Virus record (IMG/VR): IMGVR_UViG_3300011832_000001
Location: 59,867-123,866 of that record
From: a virus
Lineage: Duplodnaviria; Caudoviricetes
Length of the DNA: 64,000 nt
Reading direction: 5' to 3' (one strand)
A program made the translations under genes and the position numbers. A model generated the notes under the pieces. It made no database searches. It saw only the letters and a list, made by a program, of their open reading frames with translations, and was not told the DNA's origin. This document shows positions 5,281 through 61,748 of the stretch, one piece after another. How positions within the stretch are numbered: position 1 is the stretch's first letter; each line of letters opens with the position of its first letter.

Positions 5281-7560
5281 TTAGTAACGAATCAATTCAA
5301 CCATTTTCTTACCATTCGCATCTTGAAGTACATCAAGGTTGAATGTGAAAGTAGATGGGTTCTCAGGGTCTAACGTGATAGTCATACCCGGTAATAGCTT
5401 CGCTTTTGGAATGTTGATTTGGAATGCATGGTCTTTACCATCTTTTTCATTACGAACCAATGTGTTAGCAACAACACGGTAAGTTGATGGATAGTCGTTA
5501 GAGTTAAATGTAACTGTAACTGCTTCCGTAACTTCTTTTTCGTAGTAGATGATATACTGAGCACCAACTACAAGAGCTGTTCCTGCAAGAGTAACAGAAC
5601 CTGTAACAAACTGATAACCATCAGTAGCACTATCAGCGATTTCCTCACCACTACCACCATCAGCCAACATTTGAACCTGAACAACTGTTTCTGCATCTGC
5701 AACAGGAATTACACCATCAGCAGGAGCTACAGCTTTCTTAGTAAGCATAACTGTTTTAGTTCCTGTCTCAGCTTGTGTACCTGCCATCATAGCCAATGAT
5801 TGGTCAGAAAGTAAAGCATCCTCTACTTGTAATTGTCCTTCCTATTGTATTCGCTATAAGTCGCAACACTTATAACCGTTCTTGCCAAGTAGTATCAAGA
5901 ACTGCTTATGGTTTCCCATAAGTATAGACTATATCAAAAACTCAATCGAGTTCCTTCCCATTTCCAACACCATTAGCTTGTGTTGTACTCGCATTTCAGC
6001 GATAGTCGTTGAGGATTGAATCTATATTATTTTTTAAAATTTGTAAATTGTAATTTCTATATCTAGCATAGTTTCTTTGTCTTACTCTTATCAAAGGAAT
6101 ATTCATATTTTCACAATATTCATTTTTGGTATTATCATTTGATTTTTGATTTTCAAAGCTACTTTCTCCGCCAAAGAATTCAATTGGCTTATAGTGTTGC
6201 TCTCCGTCAAATTCAATCAGACATATCAACTTATTTTTATGATATACTCCAAAATCAAATCTAAGACTATAATTTTGATTTATGCCACTCTTTAAATCTT
6301 CGAATGTTACTTCTCTTTCTACTTCCAATTTAAATTCATTGATAAGATTAAAGTATAGGTCATCTGCCCAAATGTTATTTGATTTTCTACAGAAATCACA
6401 TTTTGAACCACCCATAACTTTATGATGATATTTTTCATTTAATTTATGACAATCAGAACATTTATATAGAGACTTCTCTCTGCTACCTCTGTACTCAATC
6501 ATTATTAAATTCATATATCCTTGAAATTTATTAATTATCTCAGCATTGCAAATTTCTAAATTTTTTAATTTGGAATTTGAGCAAGATGGACAATTATCAT
6601 TTCCTGAAATTCGAAGTCTGACAAAAGAACAATCAAAATCATTTGAACATGAATTACATTTCAGAAAAACTCTCTCATCATCAAAATCAATTAAGCTATA
6701 ATTTTTTTCCTTACAGCTCTCATCTATTAAAGATTTTCTACTACATCTCTTACATGAATATCCACGATGAGAAAAGTTAGATGGAATAACATTAACTTCC
6801 TCTAAACATTTATTGCAGGATATAGTAACTGATGTTTTAGCGTTTTTATAATCCGAAATCAATTTAAAATCAAATTCTTTTAATTTATTATAGAATTTAC
6901 TCATAATATAGACTCCTTTCCTGCGTATTATCCATTTTAATTATATCATATATAATTAAATCTGTCAACTTTTTATAGCATTTACGTTTGTGTTTCCACT
7001 CCGCTTTAGCATGACAGCTTTAGGATTTTCACGCATTTAAAGAAGTTTCGACATGGCATCACTACCATGAAGCGCAAATTATTTACGGTTGTAGTCCCCA
7101 CTACAAATATATTCAATACAGTTCGTTAAGCTGTATTCGTCATAAGACTGCTCATAGTTTCCCATGAGATTAGACTATATCTTCAATCAATTAAGATTGC
7201 CCTCCGTTTCCATTCACTTGAATGTACGTTAAAAACTAGTCGTTGAAGTTTACCCATTTTAAAGGGTCTTACCTGCTTATTGTCCAATCCTAAATATTTT
7301 CAAGCATTCACACTTACCTTTTCAGATTATGTTGTAGCTATTTAGGCTCTAAGGATTTTCAAGCAATTAGAAGGGTTTTAATTGAGCAGGACTTTCGTTT
7401 ACCCAATGATACGTGGATTACCTTGTCCACCTCGCGCATAAACAGTCTCTCCCGTTAACTCTAGGTTAGACATTTTAGCTGTGTCCATGAAAAGGACAGG
7501 TTTATTTGTTTCTAAGTCGATGAAAATTAAATCAGCAACCTCTTTAATACCATAACGCAT
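5281..7560 (-). CDS. Major tail protein, spliced: exons 7560-7401, 7098-7085, 5841-5281 (244 aa)
   Basis: Exons 160+14+561 = 735 nt join in frame to give MRYGIKEVADL...ARGGQGNPRIIG-WDYNR-EGQLQVEDALL...FQINIPKAKL...DPENPSTFTFNLDVL, a typical SPbeta-like tail tube sequence. Confidence 0.9.
5842..7084 (-). ncRNA. Group I intron 2 of the major tail gene (1243 nt, carries endonuclease ORF)
   Basis: P1 CGT|AAAT with ATTTGCG gives U.G; core TCAACGACTAT and TGATATAGTCTA; terminal G at 5842. Confidence 0.9.
5996..6904 (-). CDS. Intron-encoded homing endonuclease (CxxC zinc-ribbon repeats + Vsr-like/PD-(D/E)xK domain)
   Basis: Repeated CxxC pairs; C-terminal LRFDF...IEFDGEQHY...KNEYC...IPLIRV; ORF ends inside the intron core. 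Confidence 0.85.
   Translation of the reverse strand: MSKFYNKLKEFDFKLISDYKNAKTSVTISCNKCLEEVNVIPSNFSHRGYSCKRCSRKSLIDESCKEKNYSLIDFDDERVFLKCNSCSNDFDCSFVRLRISGNDNCPSCSNSKLKNLEICNAEIINKFQGYMNLIMIEYRGSREKSLYKCSDCHKLNEKYHHKVMGGSKCDFCRKSNNIWADDLYFNLINEFKLEVEREVTFEDLKSGINQNYSLRFDFGVYHKNKLICLIEFDGEQHYKPIEFFGGESSFENQKSNDNTKNEYCENMNIPLIRVRQRNYARYRNYNLQILKNNIDSILNDYR
7099..7400 (-). ncRNA. Group I intron 1 of the major tail gene (302 nt, no ORF)
   Basis: Exon ends in U and intron ends in G. P1: ATTGGGT pairs with GCTCAAT, with U.G at the splice site. P10: AGTCCT with exon GGGACT. Core TCAACGACTAG and GAAGATATAGTCTAA (P7 GACUA/UAGUC). Confidence 0.9.
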
Positions 7561-28134: not shown

Positions 28135-29628
28135 ATGTTAAATGAAATGAAAAATGAATTCAACAAAGCTCGTACTACAAACGGAGACCATCAATTCACA
28201 TCGTCACTAGATGGTGTACTTGACCTATTCGCTAAAGGTGGAGCTATGCGTAAACGTCCTGAGAATGAACTTACTCAATTGTTCTCAAAAGCACTTTCAG
28301 AAGATGCTGAATTAACATTGAAAGTTCTATTTTATTTGAGGGATTGTCGTGGAGGAATGGGAGAGAAGCGTATCTTCCGTGAGTCAATGAAACACTTGGC
28401 TGTCCATGATACCGATGCATTTGTTAAAGTTTTAAAACACGTTCCTGAATTTGGTTCATGGAAAGATGTTGTCGAGCTTTTGGATGTCAATTCTAAGAAA
28501 GCAAAAACAGCAATCCTTGATTTGATTCACGAACAGATTTCTAAAGATGTTGTTGCATTTAAAGATGGTAAGAAAGATATTTCTCTAATTGCGAAATGGC
28601 TACCTTCTGAAAATGCATCTTCAAAAAACACTAAGTTCAAAGCTGTTGCAATTCGTAAACACTTAGGCGTAACTTCTAAACGCTACCGTAAGATTCTTTC
28701 TGCTTTACGCAAAGAGATTGGTATCGTTGAGTCTAAGATGTCTGCGAAACAGTTTGGAGGAATCGATTACTCAAAAGTACCTACTCAGGCTAACTTGAAG
28801 TATCGTGAAGCTTTCAAACGTAATGACGGAGAACGTTACTCTGATTTCTTAGATTCTGTTGTAAAAGGCGATTCTAAGATTAATGCAGGTACTCTTGCTC
28901 CTCATCAGATTGTAGAAAAAGTAATGGGTAATGGATATTACTTCCGCAGTAACCTTTCAGATGTTGATGTTAAGTTCCTTGATGAGATGTGGAAAGCTCA
29001 AACAGACCACATTGGAGACAATGTTTCTAATGCTTTGGTAATGGCTGATGTTTCAGGTTCTATGTCAGGAACACCAATGCACGTTTCTATTGGTTTAGGA
29101 ATGTACATTGCTGAACGCAACAAAGGTAAATTCCATAATCACTTCATGACTTTCTCATCTGACCCTTCACTAGTTGAAGTTAAAGGTAAGAATGTTGTTG
29201 ATAAGATTAAGAATATGTCTCAAGCTGATTGGGGAATGTCAACCAACCTTGATAAAGCAATGAAGAAAATTCTTTCAATTGCAGTTAAGGGGAATCTTCC
29301 ACAAGAAGAACTTCCAACTCAATTGATTGTAATCTCTGATATGCAATTCGATGAAGCTGTCTCTAGCGGTTGGCACTCAGAAGGTAAGTCTGTAACTCAA
29401 GAAACAATTGATAGCTTCCGTGAAGCAGGATATAAAGCTCCTGACATCGTATTTTGGAATGTAAATGCAACTACGTTGCCTGTTACAAAGAACGATAAAG
29501 GTGTAGCTCTAGTATCAGGTTTCCAACCTGCCGTAATGAAACAGATTATGAATGCAGGTGAGTTAGACCCAATCGGTCTGATGATGGATGTTATCGGTCA
29601 AGAACGTTACTCAGTGATTAAACTTTAA
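28135..29628 (+). CDS. Ro60/TROVE-like helical domain + vWA protein (DUF2828 type)
   Basis: FYLRDCRGGMGEK, FGSWKD, AKWLPSE helical region; MIDAS ADVSGSM, WGMSTNL, ISDMQFD, FWNVN, VSGF. Confidence 0.85.
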   Translation: MLNEMKNEFNKARTTNGDHQFTSSLDGVLDLFAKGGAMRKRPENELTQLFSKALSEDAELTLKVLFYLRDCRGGMGEKRIFRESMKHLAVHDTDAFVKVLKHVPEFGSWKDVVELLDVNSKKAKTAILDLIHEQISKDVVAFKDGKKDISLIAKWLPSENASSKNTKFKAVAIRKHLGVTSKRYRKILSALRKEIGIVESKMSAKQFGGIDYSKVPTQANLKYREAFKRNDGERYSDFLDSVVKGDSKINAGTLAPHQIVEKVMGNGYYFRSNLSDVDVKFLDEMWKAQTDHIGDNVSNALVMADVSGSMSGTPMHVSIGLGMYIAERNKGKFHNHFMTFSSDPSLVEVKGKNVVDKIKNMSQADWGMSTNLDKAMKKILSIAVKGNLPQEELPTQLIVISDMQFDEAVSSGWHSEGKSVTQETIDSFREAGYKAPDIVFWNVNATTLPVTKNDKGVALVSGFQPAVMKQIMNAGELDPIGLMMDVIGQERYSVIKL

Positions 29629-30162: not shown

Positions 30163-30237
30163 CTGAACGTAGGCTAATGGTAAGTCGCTTGATTTGGGTT
30201 CAAGAGAGTGAGAGTTCGATTCTCTCCGTTCAGACCA
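30163..30237 (+). tRNA. tRNA-Pro(UGG)
   Basis: Cloverleaf, loop TTTGGGT, encoded CCA. Confidence 0.9.
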
Positions 30238-30238
30238 T

Positions 30239-30315
30239 AGGGATGTGGGCAAATTGGTATAGCCGTCTGCCTTTGAAGCAGAAGTTTTTTGAAGGTTCGA
30301 ACCCTTCCATCCCTG
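30239..30315 (+). tRNA. tRNA-Gln(UUG)
   Basis: Cloverleaf, loop CTTTGAA, no encoded CCA. Confidence 0.85.
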
Positions 30316-30323
30316 CTTATCGT

Positions 30324-30398
30324 GGTGGCTATGACGTAATGGTAACGTGACGTTCTGTGAAAGCGTATATTCGGGGTCAGTACCCGATAGCCACACCA
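30324..30398 (+). tRNA. tRNA-His(GUG)
   Basis: Loop CTGTGAA; G-1 opposite A73; atypical T loop. Confidence 0.8.
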
Positions 30399-30399
30399 A

Positions 30400-30471
30400 G
30401 CCTTATTAGTTTAATTGGTAAAACAGGAAACTTGTAATTTTCAGAAGGCGGTTCGAAACCGTCATAAGGCA
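30400..30471 (+). tRNA. tRNA-Thr(UGU)
   Basis: Cloverleaf, loop CTTGTAA. Confidence 0.88.
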
Positions 30472-30517
30472 TTTTATAGAAAAAATAAGAAAGGTTAGGT
30501 GATGACTTATTTCTAAA

Positions 30518-31093
30518 ATGACTAGAAGTGAAGCAGGCAAATTAGGTTCTTTGAAATCGACTCAAAACTTCCTTAATAGGTATAATCAAAATCCTTCTTA
30601 TTGTGAAGAATGTAATGAGAAGCTTGATTATAAAAAAAGAAATAATCAATTTTGTAGCAGAAAATGTTTTCATAAAAATCGTTCAAACAAAGAAAATTTA
30701 AAACATTTAGAATGCCTAAATTGTAAATCAAATATTCTAGGGAAAAATAGACATAGAAGACTTTATTGTTCTCAATCATGTTTTTTTGAACATGACTTAA
30801 AAAAAGATGTTGAAAAATTTCTTAATGATGAAGTTGATTTTGGGATAAAAAGAATAAAAAGTGTTTTAATTAGCATACATGGTAACACCTGTTCTTCTTG
30901 TGGTAATACTGAGTGGATGGATAATCCAATACCTTTGGAATTACATCATATAGATGGAGATGCGAATAATAACAGCAGAGATAATGTTGTTCATTTATGC
31001 CCTAACTGTCATGCATTGACAGATAACTACAAAAATAAAAACAAAGAATCAACTAGGAAGTATAGAAAAAAATATTATCAACCCGCAACATGA
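30518..31093 (+). CDS. HNH endonuclease (free-standing)
   Basis: FCSRKC/YCSQSC repeats; LELHHIDGDANNN...LCPNCHA. Confidence 0.9.
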   Translation: MTRSEAGKLGSLKSTQNFLNRYNQNPSYCEECNEKLDYKKRNNQFCSRKCFHKNRSNKENLKHLECLNCKSNILGKNRHRRLYCSQSCFFEHDLKKDVEKFLNDEVDFGIKRIKSVLISIHGNTCSSCGNTEWMDNPIPLELHHIDGDANNNSRDNVVHLCPNCHALTDNYKNKNKESTRKYRKKYYQPAT

Positions 31094-31101
31094 TTTATTA
31101 T

Positions 31102-31175
31102 GGCTATGTAGTTCAGTGGTAAGACGAGTGGTTGCAACCCACTAGACCTCAGTTCGATTCTGAGCATAGCTTCCA
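31102..31175 (+). tRNA. tRNA-Cys(GCA)
   Basis: Cloverleaf, loop TTGCAAC, U73-CCA. Confidence 0.9.
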
Positions 31176-31199
31176 TTTTATTTTAAGGAGGATATTCAC

Positions 31200-31445
31200 A
31201 TGAAAGACCCTTTAGTATTTGATAAAAGATTCAAAGGATTTTATATTAAGTTTCAAAACTTTAATAGAACTAGAATGTTCCATGATTGGAGCTTTGCTTT
31301 CGGTGGATGTAAAGAATCCTCTAGCAGATTTAAAAATGGATATGATAAACCAAAAACGCATGATGGTAGAGATATTTACTTTTTCGCTACTTTCTTTAAT
31401 TATCAAATTTCATTTGGTCATGAAAAATTGGAGACTGTTCAATGA
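31200..31445 (+). CDS. Hypothetical protein
   Basis: AGGAGG RBS. Confidence 0.6.
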   Translation: MKDPLVFDKRFKGFYIKFQNFNRTRMFHDWSFAFGGCKESSSRFKNGYDKPKTHDGRDIYFFATFFNYQISFGHEKLETVQ

Positions 31446-31651
31446 AAACAGAAAAAGAGATTCAAGAAAGAATTGATGAACATTATAAGAAAATTAAAAT
31501 TTTTGAAAGAATCATCAAAAAGAATGGAGAAAGTTTAGGACTTACTCTAGCGATAGAAATTCAAGAGACATATATTCTAGGTTTGGAATGGGTCTTAAAT
31601 GAATCAAAGCTAGAAGACAAACTTATAAAAAAAGCTATTGACAAGAAGTAA
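31442..31651 (+). CDS. Hypothetical protein
   Basis: ATGA overlap; LEWVL motif. Confidence 0.6.
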   Translation: MKTEKEIQERIDEHYKKIKIFERIIKKNGESLGLTLAIEIQETYILGLEWVLNESKLEDKLIKKAIDKK

Positions 31652-31672
31652 GTAATATGATATAATAAGATA

Positions 31673-31797
31673 AAGACACAAACAGCAAATTTTCCAAATT
31701 ATATTTCTGCAAAAATAAGGTGGGAGTTCGAATCTTCCCTTTCCGATACTAGGTCTTGGAATGTGGTGTAATGGTAGCACAAAAATGGTGTGTCTAG
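31673..31797 (+). ncRNA. Y-like RNA copy 2 with circularly permuted tRNA-like domain (YrlA-like)
   Basis: Own promoter. AGACACA/TGTGTCT stem with AACAGCAA bulge. Inside, in order: Cys-type anticodon hairpin, T arm GGGAG-TTCGAAT-CTTCC, looped acceptor TTCC/GGAA, D arm GTG-TAATGGTAG-CAC. Confidence 0.8.
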
Positions 31798-31838
31798 TAA
31801 ATGACCTTCCTAGTGGGTCTAAATTATTTTAAATTTAA

Positions 31839-31984
31839 ATTTATTCTAGTACGGTCGCCCGTATCCCAATTGGTTAAGACGACTCAAAAAGCTGATGGCT
31901 ACCTGCCTAGTAATAGGAAATATCTACCTCAGATTAGTAGAGGGCAAACTCAGCATAAAAGGTTGGAATACCTCTAGAATAAAT
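31839..31984 (+). ncRNA. Orphan structured RNA (~145 nt)
   Basis: 11-bp closing stem ATTTATTCTAG/CTAGAATAAAT; nested GTATCCCAATT/GGTTGGAATAC and GCTGA/TCAGC; abuts a tRNA 5' end. Confidence 0.6.
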
Positions 31985-31989
31985 ATTTT

Positions 31990-32064
31990 GGACTCTTAGC
32001 TCAGAGGAAGAGCCGTCAGCTCATAACTGACAGGTCGAGATTTCGAAATTCTCAGAGTCCACCA
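31990..32064 (+). tRNA. tRNA(CAU), probably Ile2 (lysidine)
   Basis: Loop CTCATAA; GGAC acceptor resembling Bacillus tRNA-Ile2. Confidence 0.8.
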
Positions 32065-32068
32065 ATAT

Positions 32069-32139
32069 TGCTCATCTAAGGGTTTAGACTTACGTCTCAT
32101 AAGCGTGATGAAGTGGTTCAACTCCACTATGAGCAACCA
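32069..32139 (+). tRNA. tRNA-Met(CAU) with shortened D arm
   Basis: Acceptor TGCTCAT/ATGAGCA, loop CTCATAA, CCA; D arm reduced. Confidence 0.7.
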
Positions 32140-32191
32140 AATTTAATACTTGACAAATGGTTTCAAGTATGGTATAATAAGTATATAACAT

Positions 32192-32266
32192 GGGGGATTA
32201 GCTCAATTTGGTTAGAGCGTTGCACTGTCTATGCAAAGGTTGCGAGTTCAAGTCTCGTATCTCTCG
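32192..32266 (+). tRNA. tRNA-Asp(GUC)
   Basis: Cloverleaf, loop CTGTCTA, G73. Confidence 0.88.
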
Positions 32267-32335
32267 TTAGAATCTCAAGCGAAACACAAGCGAAGTTCCG
32301 TTTCTTCTATTAACGCCACTGAGGTTCTTCTAATA

Positions 32336-32413
32336 TGGCTGTCGGGAGGTTGGCATCTCAAGTAGTCTCATAAGCTACAGTAATTTGGTTCGATTCCAAA
32401 GGTTCAGCAACCA
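32336..32413 (+). tRNA. tRNA-Met(CAU) with irregular acceptor stem
   Basis: Loop CTCATAA, T arm TTTGG-TTCGATT-CCAAA, CCA; acceptor bulged. Confidence 0.6.
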
Positions 32414-32420
32414 ATTTAAG

Positions 32421-33032
32421 TTTCAATGCTTAAATAAATAAATCTACTAAACCTAGTGCAAGAATGGCGTAAGACACCATGCTAGGACGGTATCGTGTAA
32501 AATCCAATGTGGTCAAAGAGTGGGATACTGCTCATTGATGAATACACAGCACATCTTATGGCGACATAAGAATAGCCAATAGTAAAAGCTATTGTTGGTG
32601 AGGTAACGTGTGGAGCTTAATGATTCATAAAGTACAGTGAACTAGTGGCGATGACAATAGACAGTCAAAGTTTGACGTTGAAGCCTATAGCGCTTCCAAA
32701 GGGATTTGGAAGTATAGATGCGTAGGTAATCCAAAAACAAATCGCTATCCGTTGAAGCAACAGAAATGTTTTGTATAACACTAGAAACTGATGCAAGTAG
32801 CCTTATCGGATTAGTTTAATATAGAGTATATTTGAAGACTTTATGTAAAATAACTATCTGAATGTCTTCGGTGAAAGCTGTAACCCGTTGCGGTTGACAA
32901 CGCCTTGAAATGCAATAAGATGTTTCGAAGTAGCTAGCGAAGCACAGACTTATTGAGCGTTTGACTGAATAATGAAGCAGTTAAGTGAAGCAGGAGTAAA
33001 AGCCTAGTGATTTATTTATTTAAGTATTGAAA
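32421..33032 (+). ncRNA. Large structured ncRNA, ROOL-like (~610 nt)
   Basis: ORF-free, flanked by tRNAs; ~28-bp terminal stem 32421-32449 with 33005-33032; many internal hairpins. Family assigned only from size and context. Confidence 0.7.
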
Positions 33033-33039
33033 ATACTTT

Positions 33040-33114
33040 GGGGAGATAGCTGAGATAGATTAGCGAAGGTTTGAAACGCCTTAGAGGTTGGAGCGTTACC
33101 AACTCTTCCCACCA
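33040..33114 (+). tRNA. tRNA-Phe(GAA)
   Basis: Loop TTGAAAC, CCA; non-canonical D and T loops. Confidence 0.8.
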
Positions 33115-33119
33115 AATAT

Positions 33120-33210
33120 GGAGCGTTACCCAAGTCAGGTTGAAGGGGACAGGTTGCTACCTTGTTAGGCGTTAATTCGTGCGTGGGTTCAAATCCCACA
33201 CGCTCCTCCA
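33120..33210 (+). tRNA. tRNA-Ser(GCU)
   Basis: Loop TTGCTAC, long variable arm, CCA. Confidence 0.9.
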
Positions 33211-33272
33211 TTTTAAAAATAACTGTTGACAAACAGTTGATTAAATGCTATAATATAAATATAGCAAAACAT

Positions 33273-33346
33273 AGTGGTATAGCTTAATGGTAAAGCCTTT
33301 CGCTGATAACGGAAAGATGGTAGTTCAATTCTACCTACCACTACCA
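33273..33346 (+). tRNA. tRNA-Ile(GAU)
   Basis: Loop CTGATAA, CCA. Confidence 0.9.
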
Positions 33347-33351
33347 AATAC

Positions 33352-33427
33352 GTGTCCTTAGCTCAGTGGTTAGAGCGCTCGCCTGTTAAGCGAGATGTCC
33401 TCGGTTCAAATCCTGTAGGATACGCCA
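33352..33427 (+). tRNA. tRNA-Asn(GUU)
   Basis: Loop CTGTTAA, G73-CCA; T stem poorly paired. Confidence 0.8.
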
Positions 33428-33431
33428 ATAT

Positions 33432-33518
33432 GGGGATTCGCTAGAGTTGGAGAGCTAGGACGGGCTGTAACCCCGTTGCGTTTACGCTGATAGTGTTCGA
33501 ATCACTAAGTCCTCACCA
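33432..33518 (+). tRNA. tRNA-Tyr(GUA)
   Basis: Loop CTGTAAC, long variable arm, CCA. Confidence 0.9.
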
Positions 33519-33519
33519 T

Positions 33520-33593
33520 GCTTGATTAGTTTAATGGGAAAACATCTGTTTTACATGCAGAAGTCAGTGGTTCGATTCCACTATCGAGTACCA
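33520..33593 (+). tRNA. tRNA-Val(UAC)
   Basis: Loop TTTACAT, CCA. Confidence 0.9.
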
Positions 33594-33597
33594 ATAT

Positions 33598-33673
33598 GGG
33601 GAATTAGTTTACATGGATAAAACACTTGGTTTGCAACCAAGAAAAATCAGTTCAATTCTGATATTCTCCACCA
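33598..33673 (+). tRNA. tRNA-Ala(UGC)
   Basis: Loop TTTGCAA, G3.U70, CCA. Confidence 0.9.
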
Positions 33674-33679
33674 AATTAT

Positions 33680-33757
33680 GGGACGGTAGCTCAGGGGAAT
33701 TAGAGCAGTTGGCTTTTAACCAACGGGTCGAAGGTTCGAATCCTTCTCGTCTCACCA
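33680..33757 (+). tRNA. tRNA-Lys(UUU)
   Basis: Loop CTTTTAA, CCA. Confidence 0.92.
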
Positions 33758-33763
33758 TTATTA

Positions 33764-33873
33764 TTGGGAAGACAACATGGTTGGCTCTATGACGGTAGAG
33801 AGAAATATAGGTGCAACTCCTATACACTTCGGTGAGTAGTAAAATGTGAGTTCAAGTCTCACCTTCCCAACCC
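33764..33873 (+). ncRNA. tRNA-like RNA with acceptor and T arm but no anticodon arm
   Basis: TTGGGAAG/CTTCCCAA stem, T arm GTGAG-TTCAAGT-CTCAC, three internal hairpins. Confidence 0.65.
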
Positions 33874-33883
33874 TTTTAAATAT

Positions 33884-33957
33884 GGCTTCGTATTCCAATT
33901 GGCAGAGAAAACGGTCTTAGAAACCGTACAGTGTGAGTTCGAGTCTCACCGAAGCTA
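33884..33957 (+). tRNA. tRNA-Leu(UAG), short variable loop
   Basis: Loop CTTAGAA; lacks the long variable arm. Confidence 0.85.
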
Positions 33958-34036
33958 CTTAAAGACCCCTTCGAAACTGCGGTTGACGATTAAATGGTGT
34001 TATCTCTACGGAGAGCATCATCGAGGGAAATATTAT

Positions 34037-34113
34037 GTGCAATTAGCTTAATTGGAAAAAGCCCCTGACTACGAATCAGGTAGCTGTAAGTTCGAGTCTT
34101 ACATTGCACACCA
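34037..34113 (+). tRNA. tRNA-Arg(ACG)
   Basis: Loop CTACGAA, CCA. Confidence 0.9.
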
Positions 34114-34117
34114 TCAT

Positions 34118-34189
34118 GTCCCGTTAGTCAAGTGGTTAAGACGTTAGATTTTCAATCTAAAGGCAGGAGTTCGATTCTCCTACGGGGTA
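34118..34189 (+). tRNA. tRNA-Glu(UUC)
   Basis: Loop TTTTCAA. Confidence 0.88.
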
Positions 34190-34197
34190 TTTATTAT

Positions 34198-34285
34198 GGA
34201 GACGTAGACATAATTGGTATTGTGGTGCTCTTGAAAAGCATTGAGCCTAACGGCTTTGTCGGTTCGAGTCCGACCGTCTCCTCCA
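34198..34285 (+). tRNA. tRNA-Ser(UGA)
   Basis: Loop CTTGAAA, long variable arm, CCA. Confidence 0.9.
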
Positions 34286-34422
34286 TTTTGATTTTTGTGA
34301 CACGTATTAGAATTTGGGAAACAGGTTAGTTAGAGACCATCCTAATGATAAGCAAGAAAGTGTTGTAGCTTATTGCTTGATTCTAACATCATTTTTCTAG
34401 TACGTGGTCAGAGAAATCAAAA
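34286..34422 (+). ncRNA. Rod-shaped RNA with central bubble (~137 nt)
   Basis: TTTTGATTT..TGAC-ACGTATTAGAA pairs with TTCTAGTACGT-GGTCA..AAATCAAAA; inner GTTAG/CTAAC and ATAAGC/GCTTAT. Confidence 0.55.
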
Positions 34423-34476
34423 TTAATAGTTGACATTTTGGTTAATCTATGTTATAATTATATTATAAGGTTAAGA

Positions 34477-34533
34477 AAGACTCGTAAACAGCAATTTATA
34501 AAAATTAGGATGAATTTTATTAATTGAGTCTTG
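34477..34533 (+). ncRNA. Y-like RNA copy 3
   Basis: AAGACTC/GAGTCTT stem, AAACAGCAA bulge; just downstream of promoter 34430-34458. Confidence 0.72.
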
Positions 34534-34558
34534 TTACATACCTACAATGGGTAGGTCA

Positions 34559-34676
34559 AAAGCACATACAGCAATAAATTCTTACGAATTTACAAATCTG
34601 AACAAATATCAGGTATATCATCGAAAGGTGACGTGTTTGGAATCTGCTTGACGAGACGACAGATTCTTGTGCTTTG
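34559..34676 (+). ncRNA. Y-like RNA copy 4 (four-hairpin insert)
   Basis: AAAGCACA/TGTGCTTT stem, TACAGCAA bulge. Confidence 0.72.
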
Positions 34677-34684
34677 TTTATTAT

Positions 34685-34766
34685 CCTTGAGTGGCGGAAT
34701 GGCAGACGCTGAGGACTTAAAATCCTTTGTCTTTATGACGTGAGAGTTCGAGTCTCTCCTTGAGGA
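34685..34766 (+). tRNA. tRNA-Leu(UAA)
   Basis: Loop CTTAAAA, long variable arm. Confidence 0.88.
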
Positions 34767-34776
34767 CTTATATTAT

Positions 34777-34848
34777 GCGCCTATAGTTAAACGGATATAA
34801 CACATCCCTTCTAAGGATATATTCGAGGTTCGATTCCTCGTGGGCGTA
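34777..34848 (+). tRNA. tRNA-Arg(UCU)
   Basis: Loop CTTCTAA. Confidence 0.88.
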
Positions 34849-34883
34849 TTAGCAAGACATAGCTTACCATTGTAAGCAAGTTT

Positions 34884-34952
34884 TAGGCACTAACAGCAAA
34901 CTTTACACTATTAAAATTATTCGGAAAATTTAATTGAAGTAAAAGTGCCTAG
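34884..34952 (+). ncRNA. Y-like RNA copy 5
   Basis: TAGGCACT/AGTGCCTA stem, AACAGCAA bulge. Confidence 0.72.
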
Positions 34953-35066
34953 TTACATACCACTATGTCGGAATAGTGGATATGTCGGTATTGACGGATA
35001 CCGTCTAGAATGGCTTCTAATTGTCATAATGAAAGACTTGCAGACTTTAAATAGTCTGCCCTCTAT

Positions 35067-35140
35067 AGGTCTTTGGTGTAGTGGTAACACGCTGAGTTCC
35101 AACCTCAGAATCGTGGGTTCGATTCCTACAAGATTTGCCA
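35067..35140 (+). tRNA. tRNA-Trp(CCA)
   Basis: Loop TTCCAAC, G73-CCA. Confidence 0.88.
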
Positions 35141-35145
35141 ATTAT

Positions 35146-35218
35146 GTGGGATTAGTTTAACGGTAGAATATCGGTCTTCCAAACCGAAGGTGCTAGGGTT
35201 CGACCCCCTCATCCCATA
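35146..35218 (+). tRNA. tRNA-Gly(UCC)
   Basis: Loop CTTCCAA; irregular T stem. Confidence 0.75.
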
Positions 35219-35301
35219 TCAAAAAAAGAGCGAAGAAACGCATTGTTGGATAAGTCCCAACACTTCGCTCTCCATTTTTTTATAGAAAGGAGAGCTTAAG
35301 A

Positions 35302-53198: not shown

Positions 53199-54023
53199 TG
53201 TCTTGTTTAAAAAGTAGGAGAAAATAAGCAAAAAGAAGTAGTTTTAAGCTAAAAAAATATAATAAATAACGAAAAGATAACAAATTTATCGGGGTATCTA
53301 GGCATAAAAATATAGGGAGTTAGAGGGGTTTTGAGAAACAATAAGGATTTATCGATAAACGATATATCGAAAAACAATAAATATAGTGGGAAGTCTAAGG
53401 CTCAATATAAGGCGATTTAAGGCTCTGTAAGGAAAAATAGGGGTAAACGGTTAGGAAAGGGCAAGAAGTGTCTGAGAGGAGCTGTGAGAGACTGAGATAG
53501 GCAAAAATCAGGGTAGGGGAAGCTGTAAAAAATCTAGTGCCGTAGGCGGTTAGTGCTTAACAGCTCTGTGAAAAATAAGGTCGCCTGACCGTAAAAAAGA
53601 CCCCCCGTTATATAACTATAATTATCTAACATTAGTTATACTGATATAACTTGTGCGGTATGTGAAATAAGATATATTGGAATTTAGTTATGACTATATA
53701 ATTATGAGCACATAACTATTTTTTCGATCTTGAAAATCCTTTAGTGCGGTAAAGCGTCGCAACGTTACATTAACAGCGAGCGATTTCGTTAACACAATTA
53801 CATTGAGAAGTCAATAGTTTTTTAAAATTTTTTTTGAGTTCATCCGACCATAATTTTAAGAATCACGAATCACACTTTTTTCGTTCTGTCAATACTTTTT
53901 TTATTCCTTTAATTCCGACCTGTTTAGTCGGCATCATCCAGAAGAAAAAAGCACGTTTTTTCTACTGGCTGAAAAATCTAACGATCTTGATTTTCGCATT
54001 TCAAAATTTTGAAAATGACGGAA

Positions 54024-54052
54024 CAAAAAAAGGACTCTTTCGAGTCCCTTTC
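54024..54052 (-). terminator. Terminator of the GC-rich cassette
   Basis: GGACTC-GAAA-GAGTCC + T-run on the minus strand. Confidence 0.8.
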
Positions 54053-54055
54053 ATT

Positions 54056-55447
54056 TTAGATATATTCGCATTCGAGAGTGTCTACTGATTCTTCAAGATA
54101 CGGGCGAGCCGTTTCCCACATTTCCATCGTTTCGTTGATATCAATATCAACGTACTGGCTAACTGTCATGTAACCCGACTGGAGATACTCGATAACGTCG
54201 TCAACGTCCATTTGGTTTAACTCCTCTTCAACGGCTTCCTGTACGTCGCTCAAGTCGAGATATTCGCTAACCGTGTCCGATTCCATCCAGTAGGTATAGC
54301 CATAATCGTCCGTGTCGTCAAGCTCAACGCCCTCACTGGCTTGCATCTCGTTAACGTTAACCAATCCCATGAGTTCTGTATGCAACTCATCTGTTAGACC
54401 CATTTCCGTTACAAGTTCCATTGCCTCGTCTAAGTCGTCCTGTTCGTCAATCTCGTGAGCCTCTAGCACCTCGTTAACCGTTTCCAGTAGTTCGCTTTCC
54501 ATGTAGCTCGTAAACGACGCTTCAACATCAACGTGTCCCCGATAGTAATAGTCAACCCGTTTTTCTAGCTCGACCTCGTTTTCTTGAATTTGGATTGTGT
54601 CCATCTCGTGAGCCTCGACAGTCTTCCCTGTCCGTACCATTTCATCAACGAACAAACGAATGAACGTGTACGCCTCGCTATCACGGTAATAGGTTTTGCT
54701 ACCAATGTGGACAGAACCGTTAATGTCTTGTGCAATTGTGATTCGTGCAATGTGGCTGTCTTGCTCATACACCTCATCATAACGGTCACGAGATAAAGCG
54801 CCGTCAAGCGTTTCGAACAGGCTCACTGTACCAATGGCAGGAGATAGGAGAGAGCCTAAAACGCCCACGCTGTTGCAATCCCATCCGTTCGCCACAATAT
54901 CTTGACAAGACCCGAACCGACCTAATGCGGTCATCCCTGCCACGTCCTGAGTACGGAACGACAGACGGACAAACATTTCATTCTTGACTTTTTCAAAATA
55001 ACCGCCTTTTTGGTCTTGCTCCTCTAAGCGCTTAAGCGCCCGTCTTGCATCGTTTACCCATGCGCTAATACGTCCTGACTCCTCGTGTGATTCTGCCATG
55101 CGCTCGACCCGTCTCATATAGGCGTTGACCGCCTTATAAAATTTCTTGCCGTCAAGCGTTTTGCGCTTAGAAACGCTGTCAATGTCGAATTGAGGCATAT
55201 CAGTGTCGAATTTCACGAGATAAGCAAGCTAGTTTTTGAAGGTAATGACGGCACTCTCGAACGCTTCACGGTATCCGATTTTGGAAATCGAGTAAATTCC
55301 CTCTAAATCATGTTCCGACTTGACAAACTGGAAATCAGCAGGGTTGATATAAGATTTTTGGTTAGCTCGTGCGAATAGCGATTCAGTAAGACCAAAATTT
55401 TCGACAAGTGCAGAAGCTGATACGATTTTCGTTAATTGGGTTGACAT
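54056..55447 (-). CDS. Acidic protein, one reading frame (463 codons) interrupted by an in-frame TAG at 55229-55231
   Basis: Track ORFs 55229-55447 and 54056-55216 share a frame (FKN*LAYLVKFDTD); only the upstream ATG has an RBS (AGGAGG). Confidence 0.7.
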
Positions 55448-55478
55448 TTGGTTTTCCTCCTTTTTTCAGCGAGCGTTT

Positions 55479-55532
55479 GGACTCGTCAGCGTTGGCTTTA
55501 CCAACGGACGGGCTAGAAAGCCCGTTTCGTCC
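55479..55532 (-). ncRNA. Hammerhead ribozyme, type II
   Basis: GGAC-GAAA-CGGGC-TTTCTA-GCCCG-TC^-CGTTGG-TAAAG-CCAACG-CTGACGA-GTCC: full core and three perfect stems. Confidence 0.93.
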
Positions 55533-55566
55533 TTTGCAGGGTTTGGGGACTTTCGTCCCCGTCCCT

Positions 55567-55869
55567 TCATTCGTTCTCGACGTATAAGTTTTTAGGAGTG
55601 CCTACACGCTTCTCAAACTCCTCAATAGCATCCCATGCATCCATTGTGTAGAATCCGTTCGTGAGGCAGTCGCCGTGATGGTCTGTCCATACAATGTGCA
55701 TACCGTCCGAGATACGGATAGCGTGATAGATAGCAGAACGGCTTTCCCATGCCCATGCGACATTAGAAAGAGTTATATTCATGCCTGAGAGTGAGCAGAC
55801 GTGCGATTCGTGCGAGCGTACCATTTCTTGGTGTTTTTGGATGGCATTTGGCAATTTTGGTTCGAACAT
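55567..55869 (-). CDS. Hypothetical protein, first gene of GC-rich cassette
   Basis: AAGGGG RBS; downstream of promoter. Confidence 0.7.
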   Translation of the reverse strand: MFEPKLPNAIQKHQEMVRSHESHVCSLSGMNITLSNVAWAWESRSAIYHAIRISDGMHIVWTDHHGDCLTNGFYTMDAWDAIEEFEKRVGTPKNLYVENE

Positions 55870-55932
55870 GGTAATTATCCCCTTTTCGTTGGAAGTATTT
55901 GGTAGAGGTTGTTGTGTCCCTCTCCTTGACTT

Positions 55933-55998
55933 AAATATACCACACTGGCAGGATAGTAGGTTACAGAACGGTTACAGTTATATTACAGAATTATTACA
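55933..55998 (-). promoter_or_regulatory. Promoter with four tandem WalR-type half-sites and extended -10
   Basis: TGTAAT-N5-TGTAAT-N5-TGTAAC-N5-TGTAAC (55998-55960), then TG-G-TATATT; no TTGACA at -35. Confidence 0.7.
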
Positions 55999-56870
55999 TT
56001 GTGACATACTAATTAGTTTGGGCATTTTTTGAACGCCTTTATATAGTAGAAACTCGGTACGGGATGCCCGAACCCGTTGGCGCTCTAAGCGATCTCGATT
56101 TTCGCTTTTACGCTTTAGCGAACTAAAGTATCGTGCGATGATCGACCCAAAAAGTGATCGAACCCAAAACGCTTTAGTCTGATAAAGAACTAAAGGATTC
56201 GATTCGTTCGATCTTGATTTTTGCTATATAAAAAAAGTGTTGACAAACGTATTTTTTTGTGATTTTTTTCAGGGATTTTTTTGGTAAAAATAGGGAAATC
56301 GTCGAGATTGAACGCTAGGCGGTCGGTCAATACCTAGATACCCGAAAAGGCTAGGAACGCTTAAAACGGCTCTCAGAGCGTCTAACGATTATATCGTTAA
56401 ATGATATAGTCGAAAATTTGGGGTTGACAAGGCAGAATTTTTGTGATTCGATCTCGTTTTTTTGAAAATATATTTTCACTTTTTTCATTCCATTTTTTCC
56501 AGTTGCTACCAAAAATCGAGTATGCAAACGGCTTTCTAATTGAGAATGAGTGAGAATGGCTCTGTTGAGCCGTTTTTTTGAAAATAATTCGTGAAAAGGA
56601 TTTAGATGGTAGGATACCTGAGAACGCTGGAAGCTCTTAAAACGCCTCCTGTGGCGTCTGAGAGCATATCATTTTCCGACGGTTGAATGTAAGCGCTTTC
56701 ATTGCCTTTTTAAGCGTTTGCATAGATATGCAAGGCTATGCATAAAAATTCTACTTGACTTTTTCATTTTCATAATGTTTTCATTTTGCATTCGGGCAAC
56801 AAAAAAATCATAGCGATCTCGAATTGTCAAGAACTTTTTTTTAAGTTCATTTGAACTTAAAAAAATGGGA

Positions 56871-60554: not shown

Positions 60555-61748
60555 ATGATGGAATTAAACGGGAAACACAATACAGCTAAAGTATTCACCG
60601 ACAACGTGGATGAATTGACAATCTCACAAGTTATCGGTATGCTTAATGAACCATTCACGAAGGGAAGCAAGATTCGCATTATGCCCGATACACACGCAGG
60701 TAAGGGGTCTGTAATCGGTACTACAATGACAATTACAGATAAGGTAGTTCCGAATTTAGTTGGCGTTGACATTGGGTGTGGGATGCTATGCACTGAATTA
60801 GATATCAAGAAAGAAGATATTGATTTTGAGCTTCTTGATAAAGTGATTCGTAAACACGTACCAAGCGGTATGTCTATTCGCTCAAAGAAACACGTCTTAG
60901 CAGACGGTATTCGTTTTGATGATGTACGAGCACCATTCAACTTAGAACGTGCAGAAAAGTCTGTTGGTACACTAGGTGGAGGTAATCACTTCATTGAATT
61001 GAATGAAGGTTCAGATGGAAAGATTTATCTTGTTATTCATTCAGGAAGCCGTCATTTAGGAAAGCAAATTGCAGAATACTATCAAGACCTAGCATTCAAA
61101 TCATTATCTAATCAATTAGATGATATCACCAAAGCAATTGAAGAATTAAAGAAACAAGGTCGTCAAAATGAAATCTCATCTGTCATTGCTCAAATGAAAA
61201 AAGAACGTCCTGTAATCAATAAGGCTTTGGCTTATGTGACTGGAAAGAATATGGATGACTATTTAAATGATATTTCAATTGCTCAAGACTATGCATTTGC
61301 AAACCGAATCACTATGGCAACTGTAATTATGAATGAAATGACATGGTATGAAAATGACTGGTTCGATACTATTCATAACTATATTGATTTAGAGAACATG
61401 ATTCTTCGTAAAGGTGCTATCTCAGCTCAAAAAGATGAAGTTGTTATCATTCCAATGAATATGCGAGATGGTTCAATTATCGCAGTTGGTAAGGGAAACC
61501 CTGACTGGAACTATTCAGCACCACATGGCGCAGGTCGCATCATGTCACGCTCAAAAGCTAAAGAACAGGTAAAATTAAAAGACTTTGTTGACACAATGAA
61601 GGGCGTTTGGTCAACATCTGTTGTAGAATCTACGTTAGATGAATCACCATTCGCTTATAAGCCGATGCAAGAAATCATTGACAACATCGAAGATACAGTG
61701 TATATTAAAGATATCATTAAACCACTTTATAATTTTAAAGCTAAATAA
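60555..61748 (+). CDS. rtcB: RtcB RNA ligase
   Basis: MPDTHAG, VGVDIGCGM, GTLGGGNHF, IHSGSR, HNY, RKGA, SAPHGAGR, DESPFAYK. Confidence 0.96.
   Translation: MMELNGKHNTAKVFTDNVDELTISQVIGMLNEPFTKGSKIRIMPDTHAGKGSVIGTTMTITDKVVPNLVGVDIGCGMLCTELDIKKEDIDFELLDKVIRKHVPSGMSIRSKKHVLADGIRFDDVRAPFNLERAEKSVGTLGGGNHFIELNEGSDGKIYLVIHSGSRHLGKQIAEYYQDLAFKSLSNQLDDITKAIEELKKQGRQNEISSVIAQMKKERPVINKALAYVTGKNMDDYLNDISIAQDYAFANRITMATVIMNEMTWYENDWFDTIHNYIDLENMILRKGAISAQKDEVVIIPMNMRDGSIIAVGKGNPDWNYSAPHGAGRIMSRSKAKEQVKLKDFVDTMKGVWSTSVVESTLDESPFAYKPMQEIIDNIEDTVYIKDIIKPLYNFKAK

Follow-up and report, generated by a model that had tools for sequence, protein, structure and literature searches.

The type II hammerhead ribozymes known from bacterial and prophage DNA (Perreault et al. 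2011, PMC3088659; RF02276) combine the hammerhead core with an open stem II and loop-closed stems I and III, and they occupy intergenic positions on the same strand as the flanking phage genes. A pseudoknot between loop I and the 3' tail belongs to the published consensus (PMC3088659), is found in most, not all, examples and gives the published ribozymes their speed. Cleavage leaves a 2',3'-cyclic phosphate and a 5'-OH end, a chemistry established for the hammerhead class (PMC8782182). Type II hammerheads that occur in clusters around prophage genes have been shown to cleave both in vitro and in E. coli (PMC3088659), and those near phage genes in D. vulgaris cleave in vivo (PMC8782182). The clustered prophage copies lie between co-oriented genes, before the ribosome-binding site (Perreault et al. 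2011, Figure 3), and long phage transcripts have been suggested as the target of phage hammerheads, which would divide them into messages of one gene each (PMC3088659; PMC6765202). A 2019 review regards the role of bacterial and phage hammerheads as still unproven (PMC6765202).

The glmS ribozyme of Bacillota likewise cleaves itself in a 5' leader and leaves a 5'-OH on the coding part, in a host with RNase J-type decay. It differs from hammerheads in fold and family and relies on a metabolite cofactor; a passage of PMC3328962 that cites Collins 2007 describes the accessible 5'-OH end left by glmS cleavage in B. subtilis as an RNase J1 substrate, the product being degraded. The hammerhead described here, in contrast, uses no ligand, and its downstream product would start in a hairpin. 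A further analogy, of function only, is the RiboJ insulator, reportedly engineered by Lou et al. in 2012 as a type III construct from the sTRSV hammerhead and a hairpin. Like the present element, RiboJ is placed upstream of a ribosome-binding site, removes upstream context and provides a structured 5' end; it gives a hairpin start to the downstream product only, whereas the type II arrangement described here would cap both new ends with hairpins. In the type I layout the downstream product carries a single-stranded 5' end, and in the type III layout the upstream product carries a single-stranded 3' end. Given these topologies, hairpin capping of both new ends is specific to the type II layout.

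Here, we describe a type II hammerhead in the genome of an uncultured phage. The stretch analysed, which we call the window, is 64,000 nt long and forms the last 64 kb of a 123,866-bp IMG/VR record (33.7% GC, estimated to be 76% complete). The element shares the core, the open stem II, the loop-closed stems I and III, the intergenic position and the orientation of the published type II ribozymes, lies at the same kind of site between co-oriented genes as the clustered prophage copies and has the same proposed role, the processing of a polycistronic phage transcript. It differs from the published consensus in having a longer stem II, a shorter loop I and no loop I/3'-tail pseudoknot. It also differs from the clustered copies, which come as several close together, in being a single copy in 124 kb and in its low-GC, Bacillota-type background.

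Layout of the element and its Rfam score

On inspection, the minus strand from 55532 to 55479 reads as a complete type II hammerhead ribozyme of 54 nt (Table 1). Every core position on the list of membership criteria in PMC3088659 is present (C3 U4 G5 A6 N7 G8 A9, G12 A13 A14, A15.1-U16.1 and C as H17), as are the standard core-adjacent pairs 10.1-11.1 (G55482-C55529), 1.1-2.1 (C55506-G55490) and 15.1-16.1 (A55525-U55508). The three stems, of 4, 6 and 7 bp, contain no mismatch. The parts follow one another along the minus strand in the order of the type II permutation, in that loops close stems I and III and stem II is left open, and the sequence aligns over its full length to positions 1-66 of RF02276. 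The minimum free energy fold is the hammerhead three-way junction, both for the 64-nt element alone and for the whole spacer of 126 nt. Judged by its sequence, the flagged stretch is a real, well-conserved type II hammerhead with predicted cleavage 3' of C17, and the cut site given in the earlier note matches the corresponding core position. As phage hammerheads have been known since 2011, it is a clean but ordinary example of its class.

Table 1. Features of the ribozyme, its host cassette and the surrounding phage genome (window coordinates)
Feature	Position	Strand	Remarks
Upstream ORF, 100 aa	55567-55869	minus	stop TGA 55569-55567, 34 nt before the ribozyme
Hairpin GGGGAC-GAAA-GUCCCC	55560-55545	minus	just after the upstream stop codon; -11.2 kcal/mol
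A directly 5' of stem II, A(-1)	55533	minus	A in 138/138 distinct copies and in 161/165 pattern matches listed
Stem II GGAC/GUCC, 4 bp, open	55532-55529 with 55482-55479	minus	from sequence and family model
GAAA (G12 A13 A14 and first base of stem III)	55528-55525	minus	
Stem III hairpin ACGGGCU UUCU AGCCCGU, 7 bp	55525-55508	minus	
C17	55507	minus	
Predicted self-cleavage site, 3' of C17	between 55507 and 55506	minus	from position in the hammerhead core
Stem I hairpin CGUUGG UAAAG CCAACG, 6 bp	55506-55490	minus	loop UAAAG 55500-55496
U at loop I position 1, U(L1.1)	55500	minus	U in 138/138 distinct copies; invariant in alignment A1
CUGACGA core strand	55489-55483	minus	
Leader, ribozyme to start codon	55448-55478	minus	GGAGG 55460-55456
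Downstream gene	54056-55447	minus	conserved N-terminal part, very acidic C-terminal part
RtcB RNA ligase	60555-61748	plus	PF01139, 222.7 bits
DUF2828/DUF7788 (Ro60-like) protein	28135-29628		
22 tRNA genes	30163-35220		
ROOL RNA	32428-33024		
Group I intron	7151-7426	minus	RF00028, 84 bits; in structural-gene region
PIN-domain and PhoH-like ATPase fusion, 411 aa	20305-21540	minus	

A descriptor comprising the core and all three helices matches the 64-kb window once, at this site. By 300 dinucleotide-preserving shuffles, a type II match with full pairing would arise by chance 0.007 times per 64-kb window when the stems have at least 4/4/4 bp; with stems of at least 6/4/6 bp, none of the shuffles contains one. 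This chance figure alone is too weak for a scan of many windows, so that the weight of the identification rests on the comparative evidence. Across the 124-kb record (about 76% complete), the element is likewise the single strong match, and no second hammerhead is found. A second match of 15 bits (G000:C1:18534-18594) was rejected as coding sequence that happens to contain CTGATGAG.

The Rfam search proposed in the earlier note as a check gives a divided answer: Hammerhead_II (RF02276, clan CL00010) matches the element over its full length, but the score of 26.4 bits (E 5e-4) lies below the gathering cut-off of 37 bits, and a scan of the whole window at the gathering threshold reports no Hammerhead_II. 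In the alignment, the model accommodates the core and both loop-closed stems, but its stem II has 2 bp, its loop I ~10 nt, and its 3' tail forms a pseudoknot with that loop; in the window element stem II has 4 bp and loop I 5 nt, and the longest complementarity of this loop to the tail is 2 bp. The gathering threshold also picks up none of ~30 other copies in 10 loci of the same subfamily, described below. The low score is thus attributable to the make-up of the model, set against a pseudoknot-free subfamily, and not to a defect of the window copy. The Rfam threshold misses this entire subfamily, which is very common in viral metagenomes, and routine annotation consequently under-reports these ribozymes. 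In addition, a permissive Rfam scan of 301 nt (55350-55650) returned no Hammerhead_II, while an 81-nt scan and a whole-genome family search both returned it at 26.4 bits; filter loss of this kind can hide sub-threshold ribozymes in Rfam scans.

A pseudoknot-free subfamily in phages and prophages

A search pattern in which only GGACGAAAC...GTC...CTGANGAGTCC was fixed matched more than 120 viral contigs, which is a lower bound, often with 2-5 copies per contig. The same pattern matched at least 83 loci in bacterial and archaeal genomes. One of its matches lies in the chromosome of the haloarchaeon Halorarius litoreus (L155, 4260-4307), and the subfamily thus reaches archaea. A covariance model, R1, built from 14 same-length viral copies with the window left out, scores the window element at 74 bits (E 9e-20), a score that would rank about 10th of the 177 R1 family matches in 100 viral loci. 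In the gap-free alignment A1, for which no pairing filter was used, 100% of the cells in stems I and III are paired and 11 pairs show double changes. The larger alignment A4, with 138 distinct copies, has 99.3% of its cells paired, double changes in 14 of 17 pairs and covariation as high as that of none of 500 shuffles, the caveat to this last figure being that A4 is a model-based alignment and fitted to the model.

Members of the subfamily are characterized by a 4-bp GGAC/GUCC stem II preceded by an invariant A, a 6-bp stem I closed by a U-N-A-N-G pentaloop, and the absence of a pseudoknot. The window element shows every one of these traits: its stem II is 4 bp long with an A on the 5' side, its stem I has 6 bp and its pentaloop starts with U. 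Neither A(-1) nor U(L1.1), whose conservation is given in Table 1, was fixed by the search pattern. Across the subfamily, A predominates at position 3 of loop I and directly 3' of stem II, and G at the last position of the loop, and the window carries all of these conserved flanking and loop bases (A55533, U55500, the loop UAAAG and A55478).

Loop I and the tail can form at least 4 bp in 14.3% of 245 copies, compared with 13.5 +/- 2.2% when the tails are permuted, and this lack of enrichment indicates that the subfamily does not use a pseudoknot. With the pseudoknot absent, fast cleavage at cellular Mg2+ would depend on another tertiary contact, for which conservation alone puts forward A55533 and U55500 as the candidate pair. 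The sTRSV and Schistosoma hammerheads hold a loop-loop tertiary contact through a U/A Hoogsteen interaction. A 6-bp stem I and a 4-bp stem II, with U and A at their far ends, presumably match that geometry in the putative contact of the window element. Unlike in the sTRSV and Schistosoma ribozymes, stem II has no loop here, and the A flanks it in a single strand.

Neither the text of PMC8782182 nor the supplements of PMC3088659 contain a member of precisely this subfamily with experimental validation, and the species with experimentally tested type II hammerheads are absent from the pattern scan of bacterial and archaeal genomes. The 80 genome loci examined all have a GC content of at least 41.6% (median 61%) and include a single locus from Bacillota, a Paenibacillus; the viral loci have a median of 56%. 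The subfamily lives mainly in high-GC lineages and is rare in a low-GC, Bacillota-type background.

It is scarcely credible that the element arose by chance or is a decayed relic without cleavage activity. The sub-threshold Rfam score, the missing pseudoknot and a nonsense codon in the downstream gene of the window (see below) could be read in this way. Such a reading is hard to reconcile with a chance expectation of at most 0.007 per window, the R1 score, a core and stems free of any defect, and orthologues that keep the fold through compensatory changes. The complete core, the three helices, the family-model score and the covariation instead bear out the earlier identification of a type II hammerhead.

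The host cassette and its orthologues

Gene context was counted for the 152 subfamily copies whose flanks were long enough. In 140 of them, an ORF of 50 codons or more ends within 40 nt upstream of the ribozyme, compared with 43 on the opposite strand, and in 68 (45%) its stop codon abuts or overlaps the first G of the ribozyme. Downstream, a Shine-Dalgarno sequence, a start codon and an ORF follow in 129 copies (85%), at a median distance of 24 nt; the corresponding count on the opposite strand is 30. In all 27 of 27 multi-copy loci, the copies lie on one strand. The window fits this intercistronic pattern, with the upstream stop 34 nt before the ribozyme, the ATG at 55447, 31 nt downstream of the element and 59 nt after the cut, and everything on the minus strand. 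It departs from the copies with an abutting stop in that an extra hairpin lies between stop codon and ribozyme.

The 100-aa product of the upstream ORF has no Pfam or PHROG match. The GGGGAC-GAAA-GUCCCC hairpin behind it is not followed by a U-run and is therefore unlike a terminator. Interpretation of this hairpin as a stem II decoy or as the remnant of a deleted hammerhead is unsupported, and relatives without the ribozyme have an unrelated hairpin there. The downstream gene is an intact 463-aa ORF in the 94% identical relative P0001, with GAG (Glu) at codon 73. In the window, this codon is TAG (55229-55231, minus), which leaves a 72-aa ORF and an in-frame 386-aa ORF from GTG 55216. The 22 tRNAs include no amber suppressor. 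The TAG could reflect a nonsense mutation, a sequencing error or readthrough, and because it is premature, the window copy of the ribozyme may no longer be under selection.

The 72-, 386- and 463-aa products of the downstream gene have no Pfam or PHROG match, and a protein atlas places the flanking-gene products only in unnamed viral clusters below 0.9. An AlphaFold2 model of P0001, built from 4 sequences, is weak (mean pLDDT 61.8). A BFVD structure search with this model gives no match at E <= 0.001, and a wide PDB search returns only generic helical bundles, matched to residues 56-152, the best being talin (Z 9.2), so that the fold gives no hint of function. That the acidic protein might be an ArdA-like DNA mimic is an idea that was considered. 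Near-identity and protein searches found no match to the cassette in cultured phage records, nor did a peptide-pattern scan of viral contigs, and a promoter and terminator scan of 53700-56400 yielded no more sites than in shuffled sequence. Close relatives of the phage record occur in metagenomes from abattoir, dairy and food-production settings.

In composition, the cassette is a GC island of ~2 kb (53950-55900) with 47-51% GC and a GC3 of 0.51, compared with 31% GC in both flanks and a GC3 of 0.30-0.32 in other phage genes. GC is also elevated in the related cassettes, including those that have no ribozyme, and this makes a foreign origin of the cassette or its leader plausible.

Four relatives of the downstream protein were found. 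The ribozyme is kept in L126/L127 (94% identical), where stem I is CAACGG/CCGUUG as against CGUUGG/CCAACG in the window; in L126 three stem I pairs are changed on both sides, and the other differences fall in loop III and at N7. It is also kept, nearly identical, in L131, although the downstream protein is only 41% identical there. The upstream 100-aa ORF is 97% identical in L126 and unrelated in L131 (15% protein identity). Between the window and L131, identity is 84% over hairpin, ribozyme and leader and 60% over the downstream gene; given these values and the unrelated upstream genes, the ribozyme has been passed on together with the downstream gene, as a component of its leader, and it is under stronger constraint than the coding sequence. 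The GGGGAC-GAAA-GUCCCC hairpin is conserved in both L126 and L131. The ribozyme is missing from L128 and L129/L130 (40-42% protein identity), where a different G6/C6 hairpin is found at the same place, which shows that the element has been gained or lost and is dispensable.

L126 additionally contains an uncalled 51-codon ORF (2760-2915, plus strand), located between the hairpin and the ribozyme and absent from the window. It has its own GGAGG, its product is very hydrophobic with an Arg-rich tail, and its TAA abuts the GGAC of the ribozyme. The same 176-nt difference between L126 and the window was seen as a joint in run X2.

Junctions of this kind raise the question of whether the ribozyme serves mainly to mark module boundaries, its ~30 invariant bases being shared at junctions for the exchange of cassettes and cleavage being secondary. 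The 84% identical block behind unrelated upstream genes in the window and L131, the insertion of the L126 ORF exactly before the ribozyme, the upstream stops that abut or overlap it in 68 of 152 copies and the GC island (0.47 vs 0.31) would all agree with such a role. We nevertheless consider it quite improbable. Compensatory changes let the sequence of stems I and III vary freely, a sign of selection on RNA structure, and this variation leaves little continuous identity for recombination, while the core is conserved exactly as catalysis requires.

Predicted processing of the transcript and the fate of its ends

The arrangement is probably best explained by a functional type II hammerhead that cuts a two-gene transcript and thereby yields two hairpin-ended messages, each independently stable and translated. 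The ribozyme lies in the 119-nt spacer of this GC-rich, leftward two-gene cassette. As the bicistronic RNA is made, it would fold and cut after C55507, leaving C>p (2',3'-cyclic phosphate) on the upstream RNA and a 5'-OH on C55506. The upstream RNA would then end in the 7-bp stem III hairpin and one C with the cyclic phosphate. The downstream mRNA would start, with its 5'-OH, at the first base pair of stem I and continue through a 59-nt leader with a strong GGAGG. The two terminal hairpins are predicted at -11.5 kcal/mol (stem III) and -7.5 kcal/mol (stem I). With nothing but the 4 bp of stem II between them, the products would separate after the cut. Each message would in this way gain defined, hairpin-capped ends, stability and translation of the two genes would be uncoupled, and the ribozyme would act as a self-processing spacer. 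Uncoupling of the downstream mRNA had been suggested in the earlier note and is in keeping with what has been proposed for phage hammerheads in the literature (PMC3088659, PMC6765202).

The motif, its place in the family, the covariation, the conservation among orthologues and the gene context are observed, and from them we infer the cleavage in vivo, the protection of the ends and the regulatory benefit. Several observations count against it, namely the sub-gathering Rfam score, the missing pseudoknot, the orthologues without a ribozyme, the single copy and the premature TAG. More generally, a type II layout may be preferred at junctions of phage genes, since it alone caps both new ends with hairpins and leaves the products held by only 4 bp. 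The earlier note had assigned protection of the upstream fragment to the GGGGAC-GAAA-GUCCCC hairpin. That hairpin does exist upstream, but it would not be the protector of the 3' end: after the cut it is not terminal, because stem III (7 bp, with a 1-nt overhang) caps the end and the GGGGAC hairpin lies 37 nt further up.

The consequences for the downstream mRNA depend on the host. All detectable relatives of the phage proteins occur in phages of Bacillota (Bacillus, Listeria, Exiguobacterium, Lactococcus, Enterococcus and Staphylococcus), and to judge from these relationships the host is probably a member of the Bacillota. The earlier argument that a 5'-OH stabilises the message as a poor decay substrate assumed decay of the E. 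coli type; it does not carry over to a Bacillota-type host with RNase J1, and we do not retain it. Any stabilisation of the downstream mRNA would likely come from the 5'-terminal stem I hairpin, and in an RNase J host such capping may turn a normally destabilising 5'-OH into a protected end.

By analogy with glmS, the opposite effect, destabilisation of the message through its 5'-OH end, is just as conceivable where RNase J is present. The ribozyme would then lower expression of the downstream gene, either because RNase J1 attacks the exposed 5'-OH or because it dislodges the polymerase, and would work as an attenuator after the first gene. The probable Bacillota host, the decay of the glmS product in B. 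subtilis and the terminator-like G6/C6 hairpin with a U-rich tail that ribozyme-less relatives carry at the same place are in line with attenuation. Even so, we regard it as unlikely. RNase J1 needs a single-stranded 5' end, whereas the new 5' end is, in the predicted fold, paired from its first nucleotide in a 6-bp hairpin. Moreover, a strong GGAGG and a start codon close by, here and in 85% of the copies, fit genes meant for expression. With one ribozyme and two genes, the locus is a simple natural test system for such questions, and close relatives are available with (L126, L131) and without (L128, L129) the ribozyme at the locus. As the host is of a type in which a 5'-OH triggers decay, stabilisation and destabilisation of the message have opposite predicted answers here.

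The core may also take part in an alternative hairpin. In the window, CGAGU (55485-55481), a segment spanning core and stem II, is complementary to GCUCG of the leader (55473-55469), and the hairpin that they could form is predicted at -5.2 kcal/mol. In L126, the change of N7 from C to U is matched by a G-to-A change in the leader, which keeps the pair (C-G to U-A), and L131 keeps the pairing of tail and core in part only. An NUCAG tail perfectly matches CUGAN7 in 22 other copies, 21 of them with AUCAG and U7 and one with GUCAG and C7. The tail AUCAG, the exact complement of CUGAU, directly follows stem II in 31 of 166 family copies (at L094, L099, L100, L105, L107-L109, L114, L119, L120 and other loci), and all 21 distinct tails of this kind have U at N7. 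This match between AUCAG and U7 points to a putative conserved alternative hairpin that sequesters the core. As a family-wide trait, a tail/core hairpin was rejected, the gain over permuted tails being small (-4.88 vs -4.69 kcal/mol) and real only for a subset. As a lead, the hairpin would form after cleavage and favour release of the products.

The phage also encodes an RtcB RNA ligase ~5 kb away, and the ends left by hammerheads are RtcB substrates (PMC8782182). Cleavage might accordingly be reversible, with the phage RtcB rejoining the cyclic-phosphate and 5'-OH ends and switching between coupled and uncoupled messages. This possibility, raised in the earlier note, seems to us exceedingly remote. 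RtcB is found in only 1 of 41 long viral records with a subfamily ribozyme, and in 1 of the 20 with a completeness of at least 90%, which speaks against any general link between the two. The cleaved products are held together by 4 bp only, and the part of the core and stem II that can refold into the 3' hairpin would favour their release. RtcB is, in addition, encoded on the other strand, in the same part of the genome as the 22-tRNA array, the ROOL RNA and the DUF2828 protein, and this company suggests RNA repair, with tRNA/RNA repair the simpler explanation. A broader version, in which hammerhead and RtcB form a cut-and-rejoin pair that toggles the message between joined and split states, or joins its fragments to other RNAs, within an RNA-repair module, is also very unlikely.

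RtcB, the Ro60-like protein, the tRNAs and the ROOL RNA look like a phage module for RNA repair or tRNA supply (Table 1). Elsewhere in the window, the phage carries a group I intron in its structural-gene region and a gene for a fusion of a PIN domain with a PhoH-like ATPase.
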